From a virus (lineage: Monodnaviria > Loebvirae > Hofneiviricota > Faserviricetes > Tubulavirales > Inoviridae): a stretch of 9,108 nucleotides of DNA. Shown here piece by piece: positions 1-9,108 of this stretch (its first letter is position 1; each line of letters begins with the position of its first letter). The stretch is from IMG/VR virus record IMGVR_UViG_2534681834_000001, positions 1 through 9,108 of that record, one strand, 5' to 3'. The translations under genes were made by a program, and so were the position numbers. The notes beneath the pieces were generated by a model. The model ran no database searches, was not told the DNA's origin, and saw only the letters and a list, made by a program, of their open reading frames with translations.

Positions 1-129
1 CTATGACATATCTCCCTGGTATCGGCGGACAACCAAAGGCACAACATGAAACATCATCATGCCGCCTTCCATGCCTGACGGCATAAAAACAATAAAACAA
101 ACATCGTCATATTGCTTAAAAAATGCCAT
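1..129 (-). CDS. Hypothetical small protein (about 42 aa) downstream of pIV; speculative
   Basis: By my reading a minus-strand frame is open from the pIV stop down to a TAG occupying window bases 1-3, with an in-frame ATG at 127-129 (a TTG at 163-165 is an alternative). It is below the ORF-track length cutoff and has a weak RBS. The window starting exactly on a stop codon, and ending exactly on the hipB start, suggests gene-boundary trimming. Confidence 0.25.
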   Translation of the reverse strand: MAFFKQYDDVCFIVFMPSGMEGGMMMFHVVPLVVRRYQGDMS

Positions 130-189
130 AAACCAAGATTCATCTTCTGTCCGTTCTCCTCGCAAAGCTGCGGGGATCGGACAGAATTC

Positions 190-1416
190 TCATCTTGGTA
201 CTTTGCGAACCTGAAGCATCACAACAATATCTGTCTTAGAATTTTCTGATGAACGTGAGCCAAAAATAGACCAACCAGACGAAGATTTAGAATCCTTCTG
301 CTCTGCAAGGCCGCCTATCAAAATAATATCACCATCATTCATAACAACGTCTGTTGTCACATCTCGCTTTAAAAGCGTCGGAGAATTATTAACGCCAGTA
401 TCAGTTGCAACAAAATTAGAAAGCTGCTGTTGAATGTTCAAATCAATAGCGTTGATTTTAATAGATGGTTTCACTCTAAACAAAACCCCTGAGCTACGAT
501 ACTCAACAGACTGAGTTGAATTATTACCATTAACTGTAACACTACCTAAAACAGGAACATCGGCACCTACAGAAAAAGAAGCCTCTGTATTATTCTTCAC
601 GCGCAATCTTGGCGAAGATACAACAGAAAATCTGTTATCAGTTGAAAGTAATGTATAAATTGCATCAATTGAACCTGTTTTTAAACTCAAAAAATCACCA
701 GAAGTACTAACGTTAGAGCCAAGAGAAATATTAAATTTTTCAGATATAACTTTAGCAGCAAGTAAAAATCCTGAGCCATCATTCTGACCAGTCTGAACCT
801 CAAAAACATATCCTGAAACAACAACCTCATCAGGAACCGTATCAATGGTTGGCAATATGCTTTTGATAATGTCAATATCTTTTTGTGTGCCATAATAAAC
901 AAGAGAATCACCTAACCTATTGAAATTATTAGAAGCCCCTGAAGAAGAAGTACTGGATATGTTAGTGCTTATATTTCCTGAATTTCCAAATTGACCAGAT
1001 ACAAAACCAGAGAGAATATCAGACAAATAACCAACTGAACGATTTAATGGAGAATACACAAAAACCTTTAAAATGGGAGGTTTTTCTTGAGGTTTAAAAG
1101 GCGTTATGTAGTCAACACCTTTTTTTGTATGAATTTTAATGTTCATATTAGAAAAATAACGTTCAATAAAATCACGCTCATTAACATCCTTGGTTATTTT
1201 AAATGAAACAAGTCGTTGGTCATTGGCTAAATCAGGAGAAATCATATAAGGAACCTTAAAAACCTCTGAATAAATCAAAGAAATAGCCTCAGGTAAAGCA
1301 AGCTTTTTTATTTCAAGCTCAGTGGCAGAAAAACAAGAAAAACTAAAAACATCAAGCACATATATATTAAACGTTTCATTTGTCACCACCTGAATAAAAA
1401 GTAACAAGCTCACCAT
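190..1416 (-). CDS. Filamentous-phage pIV-like outer-membrane secretin (virion export channel)
   Basis: Final gene of the module, about 410-430 aa, with a secretin-like C-terminal region (…DGDIILIGGLAEQKD…IVVMLQVRKV) whose architecture matches M13 pIV as I recall it. The track ORF begins at a TTG (1479); the first ATG (1414-1416) has an AGGA RBS about 7 nt upstream, so I place the start at 1416, overlapping the pI stop by about 40 nt. Confidence 0.85.
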   Translation of the reverse strand: MVSLLLFIQVVTNETFNIYVLDVFSFSCFSATELEIKKLALPEAISLIYSEVFKVPYMISPDLANDQRLVSFKITKDVNERDFIERYFSNMNIKIHTKKGVDYITPFKPQEKPPILKVFVYSPLNRSVGYLSDILSGFVSGQFGNSGNISTNISSTSSSGASNNFNRLGDSLVYYGTQKDIDIIKSILPTIDTVPDEVVVSGYVFEVQTGQNDGSGFLLAAKVISEKFNISLGSNVSTSGDFLSLKTGSIDAIYTLLSTDNRFSVVSSPRLRVKNNTEASFSVGADVPVLGSVTVNGNNSTQSVEYRSSGVLFRVKPSIKINAIDLNIQQQLSNFVATDTGVNNSPTLLKRDVTTDVVMNDGDIILIGGLAEQKDSKSSSGWSIFGSRSSENSKTDIVVMLQVRKVPR

Positions 1417-2413
1417 CAACAATTCCTGTAAGTAAAACACCTTGATAATTAAAGGTGGAAGCAGGAACCATGCGGACAAGACCTGAATTATTTGTAATTA
1501 TCACATAGCTACGCCCTTCTCTTTCAAGTTTCCCAACGATACGCCAAGTTGAAGATAATTTAGGTGTATTTGGAATTTCAGGAACTGAATTAAAATTAAC
1601 AGAACGTAAATTAGATTCCTGAGGCGGCAAATCAGAAGCATCACTCTTGACCAAACCACCATTAAAAAACCTATAAAGATAACCAATGCTAAATATGAAA
1701 ATGAGAATCATAGCAAGAACAACAAAATACAAACTTTTCTTGCCTAAAATGCTAGCCCGATTATCAACAGTAAGTTCTTTGCCATCCCCATTCTCATATG
1801 ATTTATACAAAGGGAATATATCTGGATTATATTTCCTCTGATAACTTGTAATTTTGTTTGACTTATAAAGTTTAGAACCATTAAAAACATCGACACGATA
1901 ACGACTCTTCATGCCAATAGCAATATGCTTTTGCATTCTAAAAGTAGTATCTAACCTTGCTTTAATAAAACGAGGTAAAGAAGAAACCTCCTGATTTATA
2001 ACAACAAGGTCACAACAAACACCAGTTTCAATATTAGTAAAATGACGATGCTCGGCAATAAATGAACGATGATTCTCACAAATGGATTTATCACTATCCC
2101 AAATGCGCCAAGATTCATCAATAACAATCAAATCTCCATACTGACAAAATGTATCTTCAGGACGAGAATCTTTATATGGGAAAAAATCATCAGCTTTGAC
2201 ATCATCATTAGAAACATAAACAACATCACCTAAAGATATATCTTTCCCCGATTTTGATTTTTTCATGCAATAAGCATGAATTTTATCTTTATTTATACCG
2301 TAAATATTAGTAACAACACGACGCCCAGAAGAACAAGCAGGTACAATAACACTAGAAACAACCTCGTATGATTTACCACTACCTAAAGAACCAACATAAG
2401 CAGAAATAGGCAT
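1376..2413 (-). CDS. Filamentous-phage pI / Zot-family assembly ATPase
   Basis: N-terminal Walker A motif GSLGSGKS, directly comparable to M13 pI GKLGSGKT, a single internal hydrophobic segment (YFVVLAMILIFIFSIGYLY), about 345 aa, and located between pVI and pIV. The track start at 2425 is a TTG; the ATG at 2411-2413 puts the Walker A at the N-terminus as in pI/Zot. Confidence 0.85.
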   Translation of the reverse strand: MPISAYVGSLGSGKSYEVVSSVIVPACSSGRRVVTNIYGINKDKIHAYCMKKSKSGKDISLGDVVYVSNDDVKADDFFPYKDSRPEDTFCQYGDLIVIDESWRIWDSDKSICENHRSFIAEHRHFTNIETGVCCDLVVINQEVSSLPRFIKARLDTTFRMQKHIAIGMKSRYRVDVFNGSKLYKSNKITSYQRKYNPDIFPLYKSYENGDGKELTVDNRASILGKKSLYFVVLAMILIFIFSIGYLYRFFNGGLVKSDASDLPPQESNLRSVNFNSVPEIPNTPKLSSTWRIVGKLEREGRSYVIITNNSGLVRMVPASTFNYQGVLLTGIVDGELVTFYSGGDK

Positions 2414-2417
2414 AAAA

Positions 2418-2711
2418 CTAACCAATAATCGGAATTCTACGAATAATAAAACGAGTAATATATGCGTTAAATATTAACTGAAAACCTTCATTGAACTTAA
2501 ATAAATCAAAAAAATACCACATAGGAGCAGGTAAAGCTCGAAATAAAGCTGGCACGTTAAAATTAAATGGTATCCATGAAGATAATACATAAATGAACTC
2601 ATGAACAACAAAAAGAAGTCCAAAAAACAAAACAAACCTAATGATAACAGTTCTAAAAATAAAACCTAAAAGAACATTAACGATACTAAATAACAATCCA
2701 AATAAAGCCAT
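2418..2711 (-). CDS. pVI-like minor coat protein (hydrophobic, 97 aa)
   Basis: Highly hydrophobic small protein in the pIII-pI slot, with an ATG start and a GAGG RBS. Its stop lies 4 nt before the pI ATG. Assignment is by position and composition only. Confidence 0.6.
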   Translation of the reverse strand: MALFGLLFSIVNVLLGFIFRTVIIRFVLFFGLLFVVHEFIYVLSSWIPFNFNVPALFRALPAPMWYFFDLFKFNEGFQLIFNAYITRFIIRRIPIIG

Positions 2712-2726
2712 TTTAAAACCTCAATG

Positions 2727-4199
2727 TCACGTAGAAAGCAAAATACGCAAGGAAATTAAAGCCCATATCAAAGAAGAAATGACACCAATAAAAGAACGGT
2801 ATTCCTCCAAAAATACGCAATGCATATCAATAACGTAATCTCTATCAAACACATTAAATTTAGCAACAGGACATGTAGCAGAAAGACCTGATGGACGTAC
2901 TTCTAAATCTCGATACTGATTAAAAAGTTCTTTAATTGGACGAAGTATCTCCTCCGCAGAAGGTGGTGTATCTAGCGTCGGTTCCGGCACGTCTGGATGA
3001 CTAAAATCAGGATTATTTGTACCATTATCAGAACCGCCACCTGACTCACCAGAAGAAAATCCAGGCGCACTAATATTCACATCAGAAGATGGTGAATTTT
3101 GAGCTGGATACATATAATCAAATTCTGTCAAAGAACCATAATTAGGATAAGCAACTTTTATTTCATTCGATGTTACAGGATTTGTTGAAGATACAGGGAC
3201 TCCCTGATAATCTGGCTGGGATGCTGCATCCATTAATAAATTATTTATCATCTTAGCAAGAGTATCCAAATCCATAGGGACTTTCTTTAATCCATCCATA
3301 ACAGAAAACCCATCATCATCAGTTGCCATCTTATAATCAGAAAAAAGAATCTCTAGAGCCTTATCAAAATCCTTATTAAAATACACCTGTATACCCTGAA
3401 TAGGAGTAATAGTAGTAGTTATTGACTCACTATCTGTATTTAAATAAGAAGAAGTATAGCTATATTTTACAGACGAGGCCGCCCCCTCTTGTCCTTCATT
3501 TACCGATAAAATATTCAACTTATAGCTACAAGATTTATCAGGTGCCCGGCAAGTTAAACCACCACCTGATGCAACTGAATTAAAATATCCTTGAGCAACC
3601 CCAGTAACAGAACCTACAATAAATGGCCCCTTACAAGATGTACCATAAGTACATTGCCACCAACGATAACCGGCACTTACCTTATCAACAGTATCATAAC
3701 TATTCATATTAAGTGAGTCAGCACTGATGACAAAAGGATTATCAGGAGTTGGTTCAAAATCTACAGTAAACGTTTTATCACCAAAATTAACCTCCCATTT
3801 ACCGTTACCTAAAGCTTTACCAGATGTGGCAATTAAATAACGACCATTATCAGAAAAATTTTCAGCAGTAAGAGACCCAACGGAATATCCAACTCCAGCC
3901 CATGTCAATGCACCTGAAGCACTACGGAAAAAGCCCTTGCTGGCAATAGATGGCGATTTTGACAACACAGTTTTAGATACTGCTGTAGATGTATTCCTAA
4001 CCATTAATGAATAAGCAGATTCGGTAGTCGTTACCTGAAGAGCTCTAGATGAAATCACCCTACCAAGCACAGTTGGAAGAACTGCCCTAGTTACAAGTAA
4101 AGGATTAGAGTAAACTTTCTGCACTGGAATTAATAAAGAGAAAAAAAATATAAAAAGAGATGTTAAAGCGATAACCCTTTGATTACAGCCCAAGCGCAT
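2727..4199 (-). CDS. pIII-like minor coat / adsorption protein (490 aa)
   Basis: N-terminal signal-peptide-like hydrophobic stretch, Cys-containing N-terminal domains, a Gly/Ser-rich linker (SSGESGGGSDNG) and a C-terminal domain with membrane anchor (…CPVAKFNVFDRDYVIDMHCVFLEEYRSFIGVISSLIWALISL…) that resembles the M13 pIII C-terminus pattern C.P..F…IDC…FR. It sits immediately after the pVIII terminator. Confidence 0.75.
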   Translation of the reverse strand: MRLGCNQRVIALTSLFIFFFSLLIPVQKVYSNPLLVTRAVLPTVLGRVISSRALQVTTTESAYSLMVRNTSTAVSKTVLSKSPSIASKGFFRSASGALTWAGVGYSVGSLTAENFSDNGRYLIATSGKALGNGKWEVNFGDKTFTVDFEPTPDNPFVISADSLNMNSYDTVDKVSAGYRWWQCTYGTSCKGPFIVGSVTGVAQGYFNSVASGGGLTCRAPDKSCSYKLNILSVNEGQEGAASSVKYSYTSSYLNTDSESITTTITPIQGIQVYFNKDFDKALEILFSDYKMATDDDGFSVMDGLKKVPMDLDTLAKMINNLLMDAASQPDYQGVPVSSTNPVTSNEIKVAYPNYGSLTEFDYMYPAQNSPSSDVNISAPGFSSGESGGGSDNGTNNPDFSHPDVPEPTLDTPPSAEEILRPIKELFNQYRDLEVRPSGLSATCPVAKFNVFDRDYVIDMHCVFLEEYRSFIGVISSLIWALISLRILLST

Positions 4200-4250
4200 A
4201 AAAGTCCCCAGAAAAAACTCATTAAATACCAGAAATTTAAAATCATAACC

Positions 4251-4276
4251 AAAAAAAGGGGAGAAACTCCCCTTAC
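4251..4276 (-). terminator. Rho-independent terminator downstream of the major coat gene
   Basis: On the minus strand: AAGGGGAG-TTT-CTCCCCTT followed by a run of T, starting about 10 nt after the pVIII stop. This is the same position as the strong terminator after gene VIII in Ff phages. Confidence 0.7.
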
Positions 4277-4285
4277 CTTAATAGA

Positions 4286-4516
4286 TTAAGCCGATTTAAC
4301 TGTACGAAGAATCCAACGAACGCCAGCAATACCAGCATAAAGTACAACTAATGATGCTGCTACGGCCATAATACCAGTAAGAACAGAACCAAAATCAATT
4401 GAATTGGTAAGTTGACTCAAATCAACCCCTGAAGAAGATGTGCCTGGGTCATCAGCAAAAGAAGGCATAGAAAATGAAGCTGCCAGTAATGAACCTAATG
4501 AAATGATCTTTTTCAT
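4286..4516 (-). CDS. pVIII-like major coat protein precursor
   Basis: From MKKIISLGSLLAASFSMPSFA (signal peptide, AxA-like cleavage before DDPG) the mature ~55-aa protein has an acidic N-terminus, hydrophobic core and basic C-terminus (RWILRTVKSA), the hallmark of inovirus major coat proteins. GGTGG RBS before the ATG at 4514-4516; the track's longer start at 4537 is less likely. Confidence 0.85.
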   Translation of the reverse strand: MKKIISLGSLLAASFSMPSFADDPGTSSSGVDLSQLTNSIDFGSVLTGIMAVAASLVVLYAGIAGVRWILRTVKSA

Positions 4517-4529
4517 AAAAATCCACCAT

Positions 4530-4757
4530 TTATGCATTTCGTATTAACTTGATAATCAAGCTGATGCAATGTGAAAATAAATACAAAGCAACAACCGAAG
4601 TAAAAGCAACCCCCCAATATTGAGCAAATATTGAATAATCAATATCAGAGAATTGCTGGTATGGAATCTCAGAAAAAATTAACTTGACTTCCTTACAGTC
4701 ACCACTGGGTTTAATATCACAAATAGAGGCAATAATAACTTTATCATGAGATTCCAT
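4530..4757 (-). CDS. Small membrane protein (75 aa) at the pVII/pIX position; function unknown
   Basis: Single ORF between pV and pVIII with a C-terminal hydrophobic segment (WGVAFTSVVALYLFSHCISLIIKLI). Ff phages have two ~32-aa proteins (pVII, pIX) in this slot; here there is one longer protein. Assignment is positional only. Confidence 0.5.
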   Translation of the reverse strand: MESHDKVIIASICDIKPSGDCKEVKLIFSEIPYQQFSDIDYSIFAQYWGVAFTSVVALYLFSHCISLIIKLIRNA

Positions 4758-4763
4758 AACTTA

Positions 4764-5036
4764 TCACTTTTCTGCAATAGGAATTAAAACAATCTTACCA
4801 ATACGTAATTTTTGAAAGTCACCAACAAAAATACTGGAAGGATGCAACTGATACAAACCAGCCGGATATGGAGCCTGGCCTTGTTCAAGAGGAATTTTAA
4901 ATAGTTGAGGGTAATCCCCACCGAGGAAAATATAACCAGACTGTTCAGATATCGTATATGGTTTACCAGTGTTCTTAGAAACACCACTACGAGTATCTGC
5001 AACAGCTTGAGTAGGTTTAATTTCAATCTTAATCAT
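4764..5036 (-). CDS. pV-like ssDNA-binding protein (90 aa)
   Basis: The translation MIKIEIKPTQAVADTRSGVSKNTGKPYTISEQSGYIFLGGDYPQLFKIPLEQGQAPYPAGLYQLHPSSIFVGDF… aligns along its length with M13 gene V protein (MIKVEIKPSQAQFTTRSGVSRQGKPYSLNEQLCYVDLGNEYPVLVKITLDEGQPAYAPGLYTVHLSSFKVGQF…, from memory). AGGTG RBS; start 13 nt after the pII stop. Confidence 0.9.
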   Translation of the reverse strand: MIKIEIKPTQAVADTRSGVSKNTGKPYTISEQSGYIFLGGDYPQLFKIPLEQGQAPYPAGLYQLHPSSIFVGDFQKLRIGKIVLIPIAEK

Positions 5037-5049
5037 AATACACCTAATG

Positions 5050-6165
5050 TTAAGCTACACGTAAATAAGACGGCTTTATATACCAAGAAGGAATAACACA
5101 ATCCGAAACAGTTATTTCTCTTGTTTGTTTCACAACAACAGGAGAGAATTTAGAGACATTACATTTTTGAGCAATATCAATACCAATCTTCCTTAACCTT
5201 GCTCGATGTGTCTGGACTTGCTTTTTATTTAAATCAAAAATATGACCGTGAAACCATTGAATTGCATACATGGCTGTAGTATTGGCAGCACGAGTAGTGT
5301 CAACAACACCACGACTAATAAGATGTTCACTAATAGTTTCAAAGTCCATAGCATTCACCGATAACTTTTCATCAAGCTCAAGAAATTCAGAATGTAACTT
5401 ATTTAACAAAGAATAATCAGAAAGTCCCCAATAGCACATGGATTTTTTTTGAAGAAAACGAGACTTTAATTTTTGCTCAAACCTGACAATGCCGTTGTCC
5501 TTGCAGTAATTAATGACATCCATTATATAATTAAATTCTTTAGAATCCTCTGAGAATTTATTTTTGATTTTCGCAAGGCTATGCAACTCAAGCTCATGAG
5601 CTTTGTTATATACTGTTGGGTATATAAGATTGACATTGCCTTTTTTTGAAAGCCAGTCAACGGATTTCCCATTGGAATGCAACCGTGGAATACTATTCCT
5701 GTAAGGTTGAGTAGAAAGACCTGATATATAATCATCCTCATTCCCCTTCCCTACTGATTTGTTTGATGTTATATGCAGTTCTTTAATTAAAGCACCATCA
5801 GTAATCAAATGAGCTTTTTCATTCTCTTTCGATTGTCCAGGCATTAACTTTGTACACTTGGTAAATAAAGGTAATTTCAGTTCAGTTAGAATCTGATTAA
5901 ATACCATGACACAAGCATCTACAGTCGGAAGCCCAAAAAGATTATCAAGACGTCCCCAGCGGGACGGATTTCCAGTCATTTTTAACACTGAACCACGGAT
6001 CGAGATTGAAACAACATCACAGAAAGAGCCACGATGCTGGAAGGTTGGTTGAGATAATGCGCTAGCCTCCCCGCTTTCAAGATGTATACGCTGATAAGCT
6101 ACATCGCTCAGTATCGGCAACTGATAGCCGAAATCCTGTTCGATAGTTAACCAGTCGTAAAACAT
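5050..6165 (-). CDS. pII-like rolling-circle replication initiator (nickase)
   Basis: First and largest gene of the module, directly upstream of pV. The internal segment DNGIVRFEQKLKSRFLQ matches M13 gII SGLVRFEARIKTRYLK (from memory). The track start at 6177 is a TTG; the first ATG (6163-6165) is preceded by a GAGAG RBS. Confidence 0.85.
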   Translation of the reverse strand: MFYDWLTIEQDFGYQLPILSDVAYQRIHLESGEASALSQPTFQHRGSFCDVVSISIRGSVLKMTGNPSRWGRLDNLFGLPTVDACVMVFNQILTELKLPLFTKCTKLMPGQSKENEKAHLITDGALIKELHITSNKSVGKGNEDDYISGLSTQPYRNSIPRLHSNGKSVDWLSKKGNVNLIYPTVYNKAHELELHSLAKIKNKFSEDSKEFNYIMDVINYCKDNGIVRFEQKLKSRFLQKKSMCYWGLSDYSLLNKLHSEFLELDEKLSVNAMDFETISEHLISRGVVDTTRAANTTAMYAIQWFHGHIFDLNKKQVQTHRARLRKIGIDIAQKCNVSKFSPVVVKQTREITVSDCVIPSWYIKPSYLRVA

Positions 6166-6177
6166 AGAATCTCTCAA

Positions 6178-6360
6178 TCATTCAAGATGAGCCGCAAGGC
6201 TCAACACTGATACTTAACGGTATCAATAATGCTATTATCAAACATAACAGACGTCAATGGTATTGATACTAACAAATATCAAAACTGACCCTACAGATTC
6301 AGCTATGAAAAATGGAGGTTAAAATTAAGACTTTGCAATCAGCATGAGAAGGCAGCAGAT
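6178..6360. promoter_or_regulatory. Divergent promoter/operator region between pII (minus) and the HTH regulator (plus); possibly also the plus-strand origin
   Basis: 183-bp AT-rich intergenic spacer between divergent genes. Candidate sigma70 elements for the regulator: TTCAGC (6298-6303), 16-nt spacer, TAAAAT (6320-6325), then an AGAAGG RBS. Candidate for pII on the minus strand: TTGACG (rc of 6252-6257), 17-nt spacer, TAGCAT (rc of 6229-6234). The motifs are weak matches. Confidence 0.5.
6205..6285. repeat. Cluster of TATCAA / TTGATA hexamers (putative operator or iteron sites)
   Basis: TATCAA at about 6221, 6236 and 6276; inverted TTGATA at about 6263; inverted pair TGATAC-N6-GTATCA at 6208-6225; GTATTGATAC at 6260-6269. 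They overlap the candidate pII promoter elements. Confidence 0.4.
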
Positions 6361-6849
6361 ATGGCAGTAGACAAAGAGTGTGCAGAACGTATACGTCTGT
6401 CTATCATCCAAAATTTTACATATGACGATATCGAAAATGAAACAGGTATCAGCGTCAGTACCCTTAAACGGCTGGCTTCTGGAGAAAGGGAACCCAAATT
6501 AATAGAAATCAGGAAGATAGCTAAAGCGACAGGAAAAAATCCGGTATGGTTAGCATTCGGTGAGTCAACCCTGCCTCTGCCTGAGAACCTTGGCGAAGAT
6601 ATGACTGCTTTTGGTTACGGTATGGATTTTAAGTTACAAGGTCATGAAGCAGGTGAAGCGGCGGCGAAAATCCGCCTGATGGCCGCGATCCGGGACATAG
6701 AGAAAGATGATGTTGTTTTTCTGGAAAAATTTATAGACTTGCTGAATCTGGATCGCACAATAAACAGCGTCAAAACCAAACGTTACGGCTACACAGAAGA
6801 AGAAACGCTGAAAAGACTAAACCTTCCCCAGCCGAAGGGGAAAAAGTAA
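6361..6849 (+). CDS. XRE/Cro-CI-type helix-turn-helix transcriptional regulator (putative prophage repressor, 162 aa)
   Basis: N-terminal HTH signature (…TYDDIENETGISVSTLKRLASGEREPKLIEIRKIAKATGKNPVWLAFGE…) typical of phage repressors, with a C-terminal ~90 aa I do not recognise. It is transcribed divergently from pII, like rstR versus rstA in CTXphi, and is noticeably more GC-rich than the structural module. Confidence 0.8.
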   Translation: MAVDKECAERIRLSIIQNFTYDDIENETGISVSTLKRLASGEREPKLIEIRKIAKATGKNPVWLAFGESTLPLPENLGEDMTAFGYGMDFKLQGHEAGEAAAKIRLMAAIRDIEKDDVVFLEKFIDLLNLDRTINSVKTKRYGYTEEETLKRLNLPQPKGKK

Positions 6850-6852
6850 AAA

Positions 6853-6909
6853 TACCGTGGGAAACCACGGTAAAGTTCGGGTGTCACAGAACCCCGAACC
6901 GCTTCGCGG
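6853..6909 (+). other. Three consecutive GC-rich stem-loops immediately after the regulator stop (terminator-like, or ssDNA origin/packaging hairpins)
   Basis: TACCGTGG-GAAA-CCACGGTA (6853-6872; 8-bp stem with a GNRA-type loop), GTTCGGG-N11-CCCGAAC (6875-6899), and CCGC-TTC-GCGG (6899-6909). None is followed by a T-run, so they are not classical intrinsic terminators. Confidence 0.4.
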
Positions 6910-7348
6910 TACAAATTTTAACCAAATGAAGAAAAAAAGACCATGCTTAAAAAAGATGGAAAAAGGAAAAAATAGTTGTTATTGAAAAAGCCAACTGCTT
7001 AGACTGCGAACAATTATCAGAAAGAATAGTTGAAAAAATCAAAGAGACAGAAGCATTAATAGAATGCCCTATTGGAGAACTGGACTTTCAATACATCGTC
7101 ATGAATGAAGCCAAAGCATATGCTATAAGAAAAAGAAAAAGATTTATATTTCAAAGGGTTAGCATATGATTTTGAAGGGGGTGAAAAAGCAGAATGGACA
7201 AGAAATTTAAGGGATGCACTCATATTCGATGATGAAAGAAAAGCAGCAATGATGATAAGGATAATGACATTCCCAAGAATGAATTATGAAATAGTTCCTT
7301 TAATCTACAAAGTAGATCCTCTATTCAAATCTGAAAAATAAAAATTTT

Positions 7349-7375
7349 GGTACGCACAATGGCGTTATGTATAAA
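7349..7375 (+). other. dif-like XerC/XerD site A (phage attP-type, degenerate)
   Basis: GGTACGCACAA-TGGCG-TTATGTATAAA against E. coli dif GGTGCGCATAA-TGTATA-TTATGTTAAAT (from memory): XerC arm 9/11, XerD arm 8/11, 5-nt central region. It lies in inverted orientation to site B on the other side of the hairpin. Confidence 0.5.
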
Positions 7376-7413
7376 AAGGCCGCTGCCGGATGAAAGTCTA
7401 GCAGCGGCCTTTT
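7374..7413. terminator. Perfect 13-bp stem-loop, bidirectional terminator-like; core of the putative attP forked hairpin
   Basis: AAAAGGCCGCTGC (7374-7386), 14-nt loop, GCAGCGGCCTTTT (7401-7413). A GC-rich stem with a T-run on either strand, about 105 nt downstream of the hipA stop, so it likely terminates hipBA transcripts and plus-strand transcripts from the phage side. Confidence 0.6.
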
Positions 7414-7443
7414 CAACATAACGCATACTACATTATGCGCACC
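7411..7443 (-). other. dif-like XerCD recombination site B (host-type XerC arm; putative prophage-chromosome junction at dif)
   Basis: Minus strand reads GGTGCGCATAA-TGTAGTATGCG-TTATGTTGAAA: the XerC arm is 11/11 to E. coli dif and the first 4 nt of the central region (TGTA) also match, then it diverges; a XerD-like arm (9/11) follows after an 11-nt rather than 6-nt central region. It is about 75-110 bp downstream of the hipA stop, where I recall the chromosomal dif of E. coli K-12 to lie. Confidence 0.6.
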
Positions 7444-7519: not shown

Positions 7520-8842
7520 TCACTTACTACCGTATTCTCGGCTTAACCGTCCATGCAACCTCAACACATTGGTTTCAACTGCCGTCACCACGTTCTCCGG
7601 AAAATCTGTCGGTAATGAAGTCTTCACGTTATCCAGTGCTGCCGGAATCATTCTGGCAAAGTCACTTAGGATTTCATGCATCTGCACTTCCGGGAATCTC
7701 AGCACCTTTGCTGTCGCCAAAAAATGTCGCGGATAAATTTTATCGATTGCCGTTTTTTTGCCTTTGGATGCGTTAAGCCCCATTGCCAGTTTGAGATCGC
7801 TGATGTGTATTCCCGTACCGCCAAGGACCGGAAATGCTGAAATGATGTCGTAAAATGGCGTGAGTCGATAACTGCCGCCAGCCTGAATAAATACGGAGAA
7901 GTTTTTTGCATGGCCATCCGTTGCGCCAATCAACCACTGGAAGACCTGGAATTTCATAAAATCATAACGATCGCGAAGCGCCTCGCTGGACCCCATCAAA
8001 AACGCCATGATCCGCGCGATGCCTGGGCCTCCATCTGATTCATATTTCACAGATGAAGGTAAACCGAATGTCTGACACATATCCTCCTGTGGCAAGCGAA
8101 GTAAAACCGTTCGCTCAGTATTCCAACGCCTGTCAAAACGTTCGACCGCTAACGCGCGCACCCTTCCCGCTTTAATGATTTCTGCGTCCGGAACATTCAA
8201 CCCAAGTTCTTTCGCCAGCAGCAGACAGTAATACTCATTATCAACGCTTTGGCTGAGATCGAGCGTCGCATTGGGCTGCCTGATTTCGCCAATCGGTAAT
8301 TTAATGATGTGCGTCGTCGGCGTTATTCCTTTCGGAATGCACCAGTCATTGCCTATTCTAAGCAGCGCTGTCTTCTCCTGCGCGCCAGCAACCGAGATGC
8401 GAAAGTCATTTTCTTCTCTAATCATGCCCAGAGGGATATCTGCTTTATAAGCCGTTAATACTTCTTCAAGCCTGGCTTCAGTAAGCTTTTCCCATGCCAT
8501 TATCGGGCGCGTTATGGTTTCATTTTCGGGTAATAACGTTACGGCACCAACGCTGTCTCGCCCTATTTCTGACAATAAATCAAACGGTTGTCTGGATTTA
8601 GCATGATAACGTTTAACGATCCGGTCACGTACAATCGGGCTATCGGGTAACAGGTTATCGAAGAAGTTAAATACGGCATCTGAGGTGATATTCCCCCTCT
8701 GCAATGGCAGCGAAAGTGACAACGGTCTGGCATAACGGCTGGCTAACCACTCCGGTGCATACTTAAAGGTGTGCGCGCCGTTGGCTAACTTCGTTAACTC
8801 GCCTACCCGCTGGTTGTTCATCCAAGTGACAAGTTTAGGCAT
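7520..8842 (-). CDS. hipA: HipA serine/threonine kinase toxin of the HipBA toxin-antitoxin system
   Basis: The translation from MPKLVTWMNNQRVGELTKLANGAHTFKYAPEWLAS… to …LRLHGRLSREYGSK matches E. coli HipA (440 aa) as I recall it. The track ORF is extended upstream to an out-of-context start; the real ATG at 8840-8842 overlaps the hipB stop by 1 nt. Confidence 0.97.
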   Translation of the reverse strand: MPKLVTWMNNQRVGELTKLANGAHTFKYAPEWLASRYARPLSLSLPLQRGNITSDAVFNFFDNLLPDSPIVRDRIVKRYHAKSRQPFDLLSEIGRDSVGAVTLLPENETITRPIMAWEKLTEARLEEVLTAYKADIPLGMIREENDFRISVAGAQEKTALLRIGNDWCIPKGITPTTHIIKLPIGEIRQPNATLDLSQSVDNEYYCLLLAKELGLNVPDAEIIKAGRVRALAVERFDRRWNTERTVLLRLPQEDMCQTFGLPSSVKYESDGGPGIARIMAFLMGSSEALRDRYDFMKFQVFQWLIGATDGHAKNFSVFIQAGGSYRLTPFYDIISAFPVLGGTGIHISDLKLAMGLNASKGKKTAIDKIYPRHFLATAKVLRFPEVQMHEILSDFARMIPAALDNVKTSLPTDFPENVVTAVETNVLRLHGRLSREYGSK

Positions 8843-9108
8843 TACCACTCCAGATCTTGCTGTTCTGTTGATTCTGGCGAGGCATTTTTCGTGTCGCATA
8901 GTGTCATTGAGAGTTCAAGCGACTGTAAAATCTTAAAAAATGTCGTGAGCGTGGTATTGTCAGGGTTGTTTTCGAAATTGGAAATTGTCGCCTGCTTAAT
9001 GCCAATTTTTTTCGCCAGCTCGCTCTGCGTCCAGCCATTTTGCTGGCGAACCAGTTTCATTGCATTCGCTAATTGCGTTGGGCTATAGATCTTCTGAAAG
9101 CTCATCAT
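8842..9108 (-). CDS. hipB: HipB antitoxin / HTH autorepressor of hipBA
   Basis: The 88-aa translation MMSFQKIYSPTQLANAMKLVRQQNGWTQSELAKKIGIKQATISNFENNPDNTTLTTFFKILQSLELSMTL… matches E. coli HipB. The start codon is the final triplet of the window, so the promoter and operators are outside it. Confidence 0.97.
   Translation of the reverse strand: MMSFQKIYSPTQLANAMKLVRQQNGWTQSELAKKIGIKQATISNFENNPDNTTLTTFFKILQSLELSMTLCDTKNASPESTEQQDLEW

Follow-up and report, generated by a model that had tools for sequence, protein, structure and literature searches.

The 9,108-nt stretch analysed here (hereafter the window; IMG/VR record IMGVR_UViG_2534681834_000001) is predicted to carry a nearly complete filamentous, M13-like prophage of Escherichia coli that encodes its own export pore. 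The window very probably comprises the right-hand 7,443 nt of a temperate inovirus prophage of about 7,683 nt, which sits exactly in the chromosomal dif site, 77 nt from hipA. Judged from its sequence, the prophage is a mosaic that belongs with the temperate inoviruses already known to integrate at dif (CUS-1/YpfPhi, UPPhi and CTX-type phages), combining a CUS-1-like morphogenesis module with an If1-type replication protein (pII) and an Ff/IKe-like single-stranded DNA (ssDNA)-binding protein (pV). The gene identities are shown by profile matches, and the insertion site, the two junctions and the attP hairpin by comparison of sequences. The window is 100% identical to contig AIGD01000007.1 of assembly GCA_000249755.2.

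Eight co-directional open reading frames (ORFs) were listed on the minus strand between positions 190 and 6177, in the order pII-pV-ORF75-pVIII-pIII-pVI-pI-pIV (Table 1). By ORFs, Pfam and PHROGs this is the Ff-like, single-strand order II-V-VIII-III-VI-I(-IV), and all module genes except that for pIII are backed by Pfam and PHROGs. The initial annotation had proposed an Ff-like structural and replication module that includes a pIV secretin of the phage itself, and the gene order, sizes and families it described are real (ORFs, Pfam, PHROGs and PDB). Hidden Markov model profiles from Pfam and PHROGs supported the secretin, Zot, pVI, replication-protein and ssDNA-binding families; the coat protein fell below its Pfam cut-off but matched PHROG 2186. 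The annotated extent of 190-6177 does enclose the eight module ORFs, but the phage extends to position 7443, and this added part contains the gene for a divergent helix-turn-helix (HTH) regulator, a conserved element of 60 nt, an accessory ORF and a folded attP of the CTX type. To the left of the window lie another 240-245 nt or so of phage DNA, followed by a regenerated dif. The GC content is 0.29-0.39 in the phage portion and 0.46-0.49 in hipBA, and the DNA between the regulator ORF and hipBA is AT-rich. No integrase-like ORF or integrase Pfam match was found within the prophage unit.

Table 1. Features of the window, with coordinates, strand and the evidence used for each assignment.
Feature	Position	Strand	Evidence
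Phage intergenic DNA 3' of pIV	1-189	-	Matches strain 300709 and 7,694-nt contigs L007/L008
Gene IV, pIV secretin, 396 aa in sibling copies	190-1379	-	Pfam, PHROG, PDB, M13 pIV
Gene I, pI/Zot-type assembly ATPase, 345 aa	1376-2413	-	Pfam Zot, PHROG 197
Gene VI, minor coat protein, 97 aa	2418-2711	-	DUF2523, PHROG 974
Putative pIII-like adsorption protein, 490 aa	2727-4199	-	Position and sequence features
Rho-independent terminator after gene VIII	4256-4274	-	AAGGGGAGTTTCTCCCCTT then T-run
Gene VIII, major coat protein, 76-aa precursor	4286-4516	-	PHROG 2186, features
ORF75, 75-aa protein with C-terminal membrane helix	4530-4757	-	PHROG 3679
Gene V, ssDNA-binding protein, 90 aa	4764-5036	-	Phage_DNA_bind
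Gene II, rolling-circle replication initiator, 371 aa from ATG at 6165	5050-6165	-	G2P_X_C, Phage_CRI, PHROG 702
Divergent promoter/operator region, gene II/regulator	6166-6360		Repeats, hexamers
HTH (Cro/C1-type) regulator, 162 aa, divergent from gene II	6361-6849	+	HTH_3, PHROG 3557
Conserved three-hairpin element	6854-6916		ACCGTGGGAAACCACGGT AAAG TTCGGGTGTCACAGAACCCCGAAC CGCTTCGCGG
Accessory ORF, 154 aa in L005	6926-7341	+	Intact in L005, L007, L008
attP-derived forked hairpin, two inverted dif-like sites	7348-7443	-	ssDNA fold, conserved pairs, junctions
Chromosomal flank: hipA 7520-8842, hipB 8842-9108	7520-9108	-	Pfam, RefSeq annotation of homologous loci

Both prophage junctions fall in dif. 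On the minus strand, the right junction joins the chromosomal XerC arm GGTGCGCATAA to phage sequence, TGTAGT ATGCGTTATGT; it lies 77 nt from the hipA stop codon at the exact position of dif in K-12. At the left junction, on source contig L004, the phage XerC arm GGTACGCATAA is joined to the chromosomal central region and XerD arm, TGTATA TTATGTTAAAT, which by sequence comparison is a regenerated dif. Comparison with the empty site of K-12 showed identical flanks on each side of dif, and insertion exactly in dif was also found in strain 300709. No canonical 28-nt dif (up to 3 mismatches) is present in the window; positions 7416-7443 are a hybrid that matches dif solely in the XerC arm and in part of the central region, and its last 11 nt (7433-7443) are the chromosomal arm of the hybrid junction. 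Two contigs of 7,694 nt (L007 and L008) have an 11-nt terminal overlap, CGCATAATGTA, so that the unit measures 7,683 nt and the crossover falls within the shared 11-mer. The phage-phage or circular junction reads GGTACGCATAATGTAGTATGCG.

The attP region, with its dif-like sites 3' of the accessory ORF and flanking a GC-rich stem, is predicted to form, as phage-sense ssDNA, a long hairpin in which 6 nt bulge out at the central region (-35 kcal/mol, z = -9.55). This fold is conserved across seven related elements, with 39 pairs, 9 of which show compensatory changes. Exact insertion in dif with a regenerated dif, and two inverted dif-like sites that fold in (+) ssDNA, are features of CTX-type integrative mobile elements exploiting Xer (IMEX). 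By analogy, the attP may be a XerCD substrate of the CTXPhi/YpfPhi type, with catalysis by XerC and XerD; such folded-ssDNA, CTX-type substrates are described in PMC4266046. CTXPhi of Vibrio cholerae resembles the window phage in its folded ssDNA attP, where two inverted dif-like sites leave the central region unpaired, and likewise in its XerC-side crossover, regenerated dif, divergent regulator and lack of an integrase; its folded-attP integration is treated in a passage of PMC4266046 that cites Val et al. 2005. The proteins of CTXPhi are not close relatives of those in the window. Two extra attP-type hairpins occur between the tandem prophage copies of strain UTAK-3 (L002, 3049-3152 and 3513-3616), with a different stem sequence whose changes are compensated. 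Spaced about 150-460 nt apart, they look like very small elements inserted at dif, either satellites or remnants.

The product of the secretin gene matches Pfam Secretin (PF00263; 1.9e-24, 86.6 bits against a cut-off of 27.5) and, over residues 3-394 of 396, PHROG 1012, 'assembly (protein IV of M13)' (4e-120). Pairwise comparison with the proteins of M13, IKe and If1 was done by BLASTP, and gave 27.5% identity to M13 pIV (E = 1.8e-16). RefSeq names a homologue 'type II secretion system protein GspD', and the best PDB sequence matches are GspD structures (1.6e-20; 7.2e-12 for f1 pIV, 7OFH), as would suit secretin and Zot-like genes belonging to a host type II secretion or pilus system and not to a phage. 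The full-length match, however, is the M13 pIV PHROG, and the gene shares a 7.7-kb unit with pII, pV, pVIII and pVI that is missing at the K-12 site, tandem in other strains and bounded by dif-type junctions. A host secretion system is effectively refuted by these observations and has next to no probability. CTXPhi has no secretin of its own and uses the host EpsD; it carries ctxAB.

In the assembly ATPase pI, a Walker A motif (GSLGSGKS) is present and a single membrane span is predicted; the protein matches Pfam Zot above the cut-off (2.9e-26) and the Zot-like PHROG 197 (1e-70). Its nearest homologues in the phage database are from uncultured gut-metagenome inoviruses (47% identical). The minor coat protein pVI matches Pfam DUF2523, the pVI family (2e-9), PHROG 974 'minor head protein' (1.6e-18) and the Ace-like PHROG 306 (3e-5). 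The pVIII precursor, preceded by a GGTGGA Shine-Dalgarno sequence upstream of its ATG at 4516, has the leader MKKIISLGSLLAASFSMPSFA and a mature part with an acidic N-terminus, a hydrophobic core and a basic C-terminus, as expected of the small major coat protein of an Inoviridae-type filamentous phage. It matches PHROG 2186 'virion structural protein' (5.9e-24), and Pfam Phage_Coat_B at 3e-4 (21.2 bits, below the cut-off of 23.5). A single gene, ORF75, stands where Ff has genes VII and IX. Its product matches PHROG 3679 of unknown function (5.2e-15), is 91% identical in strain 300709 and 36% in the CUS-1 type, and from its position may be a virion-tip protein. The pIII-like gene is located between the pVIII terminator and pVI, and encodes a protein that has a signal-like segment at its N-terminus, a hydrophobic anchor at its C-terminus and a linker rich in Gly and Ser (SSGESGGGSDNG). 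This protein matches PHROG 3942, of unknown function (1.8e-82), its C-terminal part is 33% identical to a CUS-1-type protein annotated PuvA in one record, and the homologue search returned 10 relatives only.

Among the replication proteins, pV matches Pfam Phage_DNA_bind (1.4e-23) and PHROG 1199, ssDNA-binding (1.9e-29), and is 53% identical to M13 pV (3.6e-28) and 51% to IKe pV. The replication initiator pII matches Pfam G2P_X_C (6.7e-25), Phage_CRI (1.2e-4; 22.3 bits, cut-off 21.7) and the replication protein PHROG 702 (8.7e-107), and has 82% aa identity to 'ORF320' of phage If1. Direct similarity to M13 had been claimed for pV, pII and pI. It was borne out for pV, but pairwise BLASTP gave non-significant values for pII (E = 0.035), which is of If1 type instead, and for pI (E = 1.2). 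In the If1 record (NC_001954.1, 7313-8432), the replication gene is annotated 'ORF320; homologous to R-pyocin', and the first ~50 residues of the window pII align upstream of ORF320 in a different frame (94%). This 1990s record probably holds a frame error and a mis-annotated gene II, since pII aligns to ORF320 with its N-terminal part in another frame.

By sequence comparison, the structural module is closest to that of CUS-1/YpfPhi, and the replication module to that of If1. CUS-1 of E. coli O18:K1:H7 and YpfPhi of Yersinia pestis insert at dif via two inverted XerC/XerD-like sites, can form tandem arrays, and have a divergent RstR-like regulator, an Ff-like gene order and a secretion module (PMC4266046). 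The structural module of the window (190-4189) occurs at an identity of at least 85% in one of 5,426 complete E. coli genomes, and a class of about 66% identity in 129 of the 5,426. This second class is the element of UTI89, NC101 and other strains; we take it to be the CUS-1 family, given its presence in UTI89 and the 'PuvA' annotation of its pIII in one record. The CUS-1-type elements of UTI89 and TUM14759 have homologues of the window's pIV (66%), pI (50%), pVI (44%), pVIII (76%), pIII C-terminus (33%), ORF75 (36%) and HTH regulator (36%), and the same kind of attP hairpin. However, their pII and pV have no detectable match to those of the window, the accessory ORFs are others, the unit measures 8.7-9.5 kb compared with ~7.68 kb, and the TUM14759 element (L016) is without the conserved 60-nt element. 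At the nucleotide level the window is not 99% identical to a CUS-1/YpfPhi core: identity to the UTI89/TUM14759-type element is ~66% over pI-pIV, with pII and pV unrelated. The scan of genome contigs with pII returned no Y. pestis locus. In E. coli TUM14759, the CUS-1-type inovirus was deposited as a 9,565-bp circular 'untypable plasmid' (NZ_CP128883.1), presumably its replicative form, and chromosomal copies are present as well.

If1 (Infulavirus) shares with the window phage the replication protein and a 61-nt intergenic element that is 100% identical, but its pV, pVIII, pIII, pVI and pI have no detectable similarity to those of the window and its pIV only 26% identity. It is also non-integrating and I-pilus-specific, and its record lacks an attP or HTH module. 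The Ff phages (M13/f1/fd) have the same order, II-V-(VII/IX)-VIII-terminator-III-VI-I-IV, the same I/IV overlap and, as at 4274-4256 here, a terminator after gene VIII. Their pII and pI are related to those of the window at the family level only and their pIII is unrelated. The window phage is temperate and has a regulator, an accessory ORF and a dif-type attP in place of the Ff intergenic region. A further comparison is with the UPPhi901 group (Shapiro & Putonti 2020, PMC7307601), Ff-like prophages of Enterobacterales that are found at dif, in tandem, and as mosaics of structural and replication modules. Integration at dif and module mosaicism are shared with the window phage, whose relatives also form tandem arrays. 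UPPhi structural genes have ~70% aa identity to those of IKe/I2-2 (PMC7307601), whereas IKe-like structural genes are absent here: by BLASTP, pI, pIII, pVI and pVIII gave no significant IKe match, and pIV is 27% identical.

Other strains carry different combinations of these parts. Prophages of the UTAK-3 type share pII, pV, the HTH genes and the attP side with the window at 98-99%, and have a different structural module. The dif/hipA locus of E. coli thus harbours a pool of mosaic inoviruses that swap modules, and module exchange among dif inoviruses has been noted for UPPhi and YpfPhi (PMC7307601). Three contigs from draft and Logan assemblies (L009-L011) have the same structural module as the window but lack both gene II and the hipBA side. 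Joined to lsrK and ending in the inverted repeats of an insertion sequence (GGCTTTGTTGAATAAATCG), they are degraded remnants in other strains.

Several points weigh against an intact, virion-producing prophage in the window. No in-frame Sec signal peptide for pIV was found in the window sequence, and the same pIV deletion occurs in an independent assembly (L012), which could reflect a real mutation. The source contig runs from fimbrial genes through one prophage copy to hipA, and by analogy a single copy makes virion production less likely, except where the strain also has tandem copies or a replicative form. XerCD dependence, repression and virion release in this phage are proposed by analogy. 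The pIII-like protein had no match in Pfam or PDB sequences, and its AlphaFold model (mean predicted local distance difference test score, pLDDT, 64.8) had no Foldseek match to PDB at E <= 0.001. Of the proteins for which the initial annotation cited diagnostic features, pVIII, pVI and pIV are confirmed by profiles; pIII has no family or fold match and is assigned from its position and features.

The missing signal peptide is explained by a single base. The ATG at 1379, where pIV starts, overlaps the pI stop codon as ATGA, but its frame in the window reads MKRLIYMCLMFLVFLVFLPLSLK and ends at a stop after 23 codons. From the same ATG, near-identical copies read MKRLIYMCLMFFSFSCFSA followed by TELEIKK, and this in-frame leader is present in seven sibling copies. 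In the prophage of strain 300709 (89% identical), the gene IV ATG also overlaps the gene I stop (ATGA) and a normal leader is encoded. The T5 run at 1345-1349 (A5 on the plus strand) is one base shorter in the window than in seven near-identical copies, which puts the ATG and signal peptide in a different frame from the secretin body. The secretin ORF was listed as 190-1479, and its upstream opening is due to chance only. The module had been described as intact and free of frameshifts; this description does not hold for the window sequence, where the pIV start is out of frame and four further deletions lie in the accessory ORF, outside 190-6177. As an annotation lesson, a long secretin ORF can appear intact yet conceal a frameshift in the leader.

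Compared with contigs L005, L007 and L008, the window has five single-base deletions (1349, 6938, 6972, 7134 and 7135) and 0-2 substitutions. Every one of the deletions trims an A run of 6-8 bases; one of the five is in the pIV leader, and the other four break the accessory ORF. These differences are probably homopolymer under-calls of assembly GCA_000249755.2, and the frameshifts artefacts, because all five are A-run under-calls with almost no substitutions. The given sequence is frameshifted, and the biological prophage is probably intact. The read chemistry of the source assembly is suggested by the error pattern. The Logan assembly of SRR491127, from which L012 comes, has the same gene IV deletion, and its contig stops right after an A8 run, a break that points to reads prone to homopolymer errors. 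Homopolymer length differences between assemblies extend beyond the source of the window, as the A7 run of gene VI (2508-2514) is A8 in L010 and L011, where it breaks pVI.

If the deletion in the pIV leader were real, the secretin would not be exported, a single copy would make no phage ssDNA, and the prophage would be a defective, domesticated remnant. This would fit the 23-codon ATG-1379 frame, the sole in-frame upstream starts, which give a leader without a basic N-region, the deletion shared with L012, the single copy on the source contig, and the existence of degraded relatives such as L009-L011, cut by an insertion sequence and joined to lsrK. On the other hand, the five under-called A runs, with zero substitutions relative to L008, are the signature of 454 or Ion Torrent-type error and not of decay. 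L012 may also come from the same strain and the same read chemistry, and it breaks at an A8 run. Moreover, its end coincides exactly with the phage/dif junction, a hint that those reads include another kind of junction, from tandem copies or a replicative form. A degraded remnant had been named in the initial annotation as the outcome that would count against it; the comparison of copies points to sequencing error over decay, and we consider a defective remnant unlikely. In a second alternative, the T/A run of the pIV leader would act as a true slip-strand switch and make the secretin, and hence phage export, phase-variable. Run lengths do vary among near-identical copies, both at pIV 1349 (A5 or A6) and at pVI 2514 (A7, or A8 in L010/L011). 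Runs of 5-8 bases are short for efficient slippage, however, under-calls of the same assembly also hit a non-essential ORF, and the variation follows assemblies, not lineages. We know of no precedent for phase-variable inovirus secretins, and a switch of this kind is very improbable. An intact prophage with sequencing errors in its A runs is the preferred reading.

Whether this prophage produces virions is uncertain. Relatives occur in tandem at the same locus, with three copies in strain 300709 and two each in UTAK-3 and ETEC1749; contig L005 ends in a phage-phage junction, and a CUS-1-type relative is present as a 9.5-kb circular episome. In CTXPhi, the double-stranded prophage lacks a functional attP, and rolling-circle replication that runs from the origin of one prophage to that of its neighbour supplies new ssDNA. 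Because ssDNA production of the CTX type needs tandem copies, a solitary copy is expected to be a poor virion producer. The possible virion production claimed in the initial annotation is consistent with a prophage that is probably intact biologically, and is weakened, for CTX-type integration, by the single copy in the source assembly. A lone CTX-type copy is in itself no evidence of phage production.

We propose the following cycle, in which catalysis, repression and virion production are modelled on Ff, CTXPhi and YpfPhi. The packaged (+) strand would correspond to the minus strand of the window, and its two inverted dif-like sites would pair to form a forked hairpin resembling dif. As in CTXPhi and YpfPhi, XerC and XerD of the host may then exchange one strand pair between this hairpin and dif. 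The outcome would be a hybrid site beside hipA and, at the opposite end of the prophage, a regenerated dif; both junctions were seen. The divergent HTH regulator may repress the gene II promoter. Once expressed, the If1-type pII would nick the (+) origin for rolling-circle replication, and pV would coat the ssDNA. The filament may be built from pVIII, the pIII-like protein, pVI and the 75-aa protein, and could be extruded without lysis by pI and the phage's own pIV secretin.

Two direct repeats of 24 nt (TGATACTTAACGGTATCAATAATG-like, at 6208-6231 and 6264-6287) lie between gene II and the regulator gene and are candidate operators for the HTH regulator. Promoter-like hexamers lie at 6257-6229 (-) and 6201-6230 (+) and are consensus matches only. 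The regulator, a putative repressor, matches Pfam HTH_3 (2e-8) and PHROG 3557 'transcriptional regulator' (1.2e-23), and is 100% identical in UTAK-3 prophages. No LexA box (CTGT-N8-ACAG, up to 1 mismatch) was found anywhere in the window, which thus shows no sign of SOS control. The accessory ORF had no Pfam or PHROG match. An imperfect 42-nt hairpin directly after the pIV stop (about 186-145, minus strand) is, from its position, a candidate packaging signal or terminator; the phage end that includes this DNA (L007:7250-7694) folds with z = -3.4.

In addition to the 61 nt shared with the If1 intergenic region, the core of the conserved three-hairpin element recurs at 98% identity in Alteromonas phage phiAFP1, a phage with a pII only 52% identical to that of the window. 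A 24-nt core was found in 24 inovirus-sized IMG/VR contigs, always in the same orientation and upstream of gene II; four of these contigs are without this pII family. The core also occurs in 436 plasmids, which are mostly conjugative; in the plasmid entries listed it lies in unannotated spacers. The stem of hairpin 1 is kept by compensatory changes around a GAAA loop, and the next 34 nt are invariant. Within this invariant core the phage-sense strand carries GCGAAGCGG, and the F-G intergenic spacer of phiX174 carries GCCGAAGCGG. AAGCGG is a motif that we take to be common to PriA-dependent primosome assembly sites. An Rfam scan returned no family for the element or its hairpins, and comparison with the complementary-strand origin of phage G4 showed no clear similarity. 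The element travels with this pII family in If1, phiAFP1, L001 and L002, and was considered as the pII-cognate (+) origin; this interpretation was demoted because of its presence in the four inovirus contigs without this pII and in the plasmids. A complementary-strand origin or single-strand initiation signal is favoured over a Rep-specific (+) origin on the sequence distribution. Potentially, the element could be a horizontally mobile, host-recognised ssDNA initiation signal (a complementary-strand origin or primosome assembly site), a cassette exchanged by ssDNA phages and conjugative plasmids, although we put this forward only tentatively, as it is somewhat doubtful.

The chromosomal flank contains the hipBA toxin-antitoxin locus, which directly adjoins the prophage; hipA matches Pfam HipA_C (1.2e-51) and Couple_hipA (2.3e-27). 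Each tandem inovirus array examined in E. coli lies between hipA and ydeT/yneL remnants.

Dif-integrating filamentous prophages such as CTXPhi, YpfPhi/CUS-1 and UPPhi influence the virulence and fitness of enteric pathogens, and the window adds to them an unnamed, rare lineage. The conserved element is carried by Escherichia and Alteromonas inoviruses with diverged pII, by inoviruses with an unrelated Rep, and by ~430 mostly conjugative plasmids. The lineage also ties the classical lytic-type phage If1 to temperate relatives.

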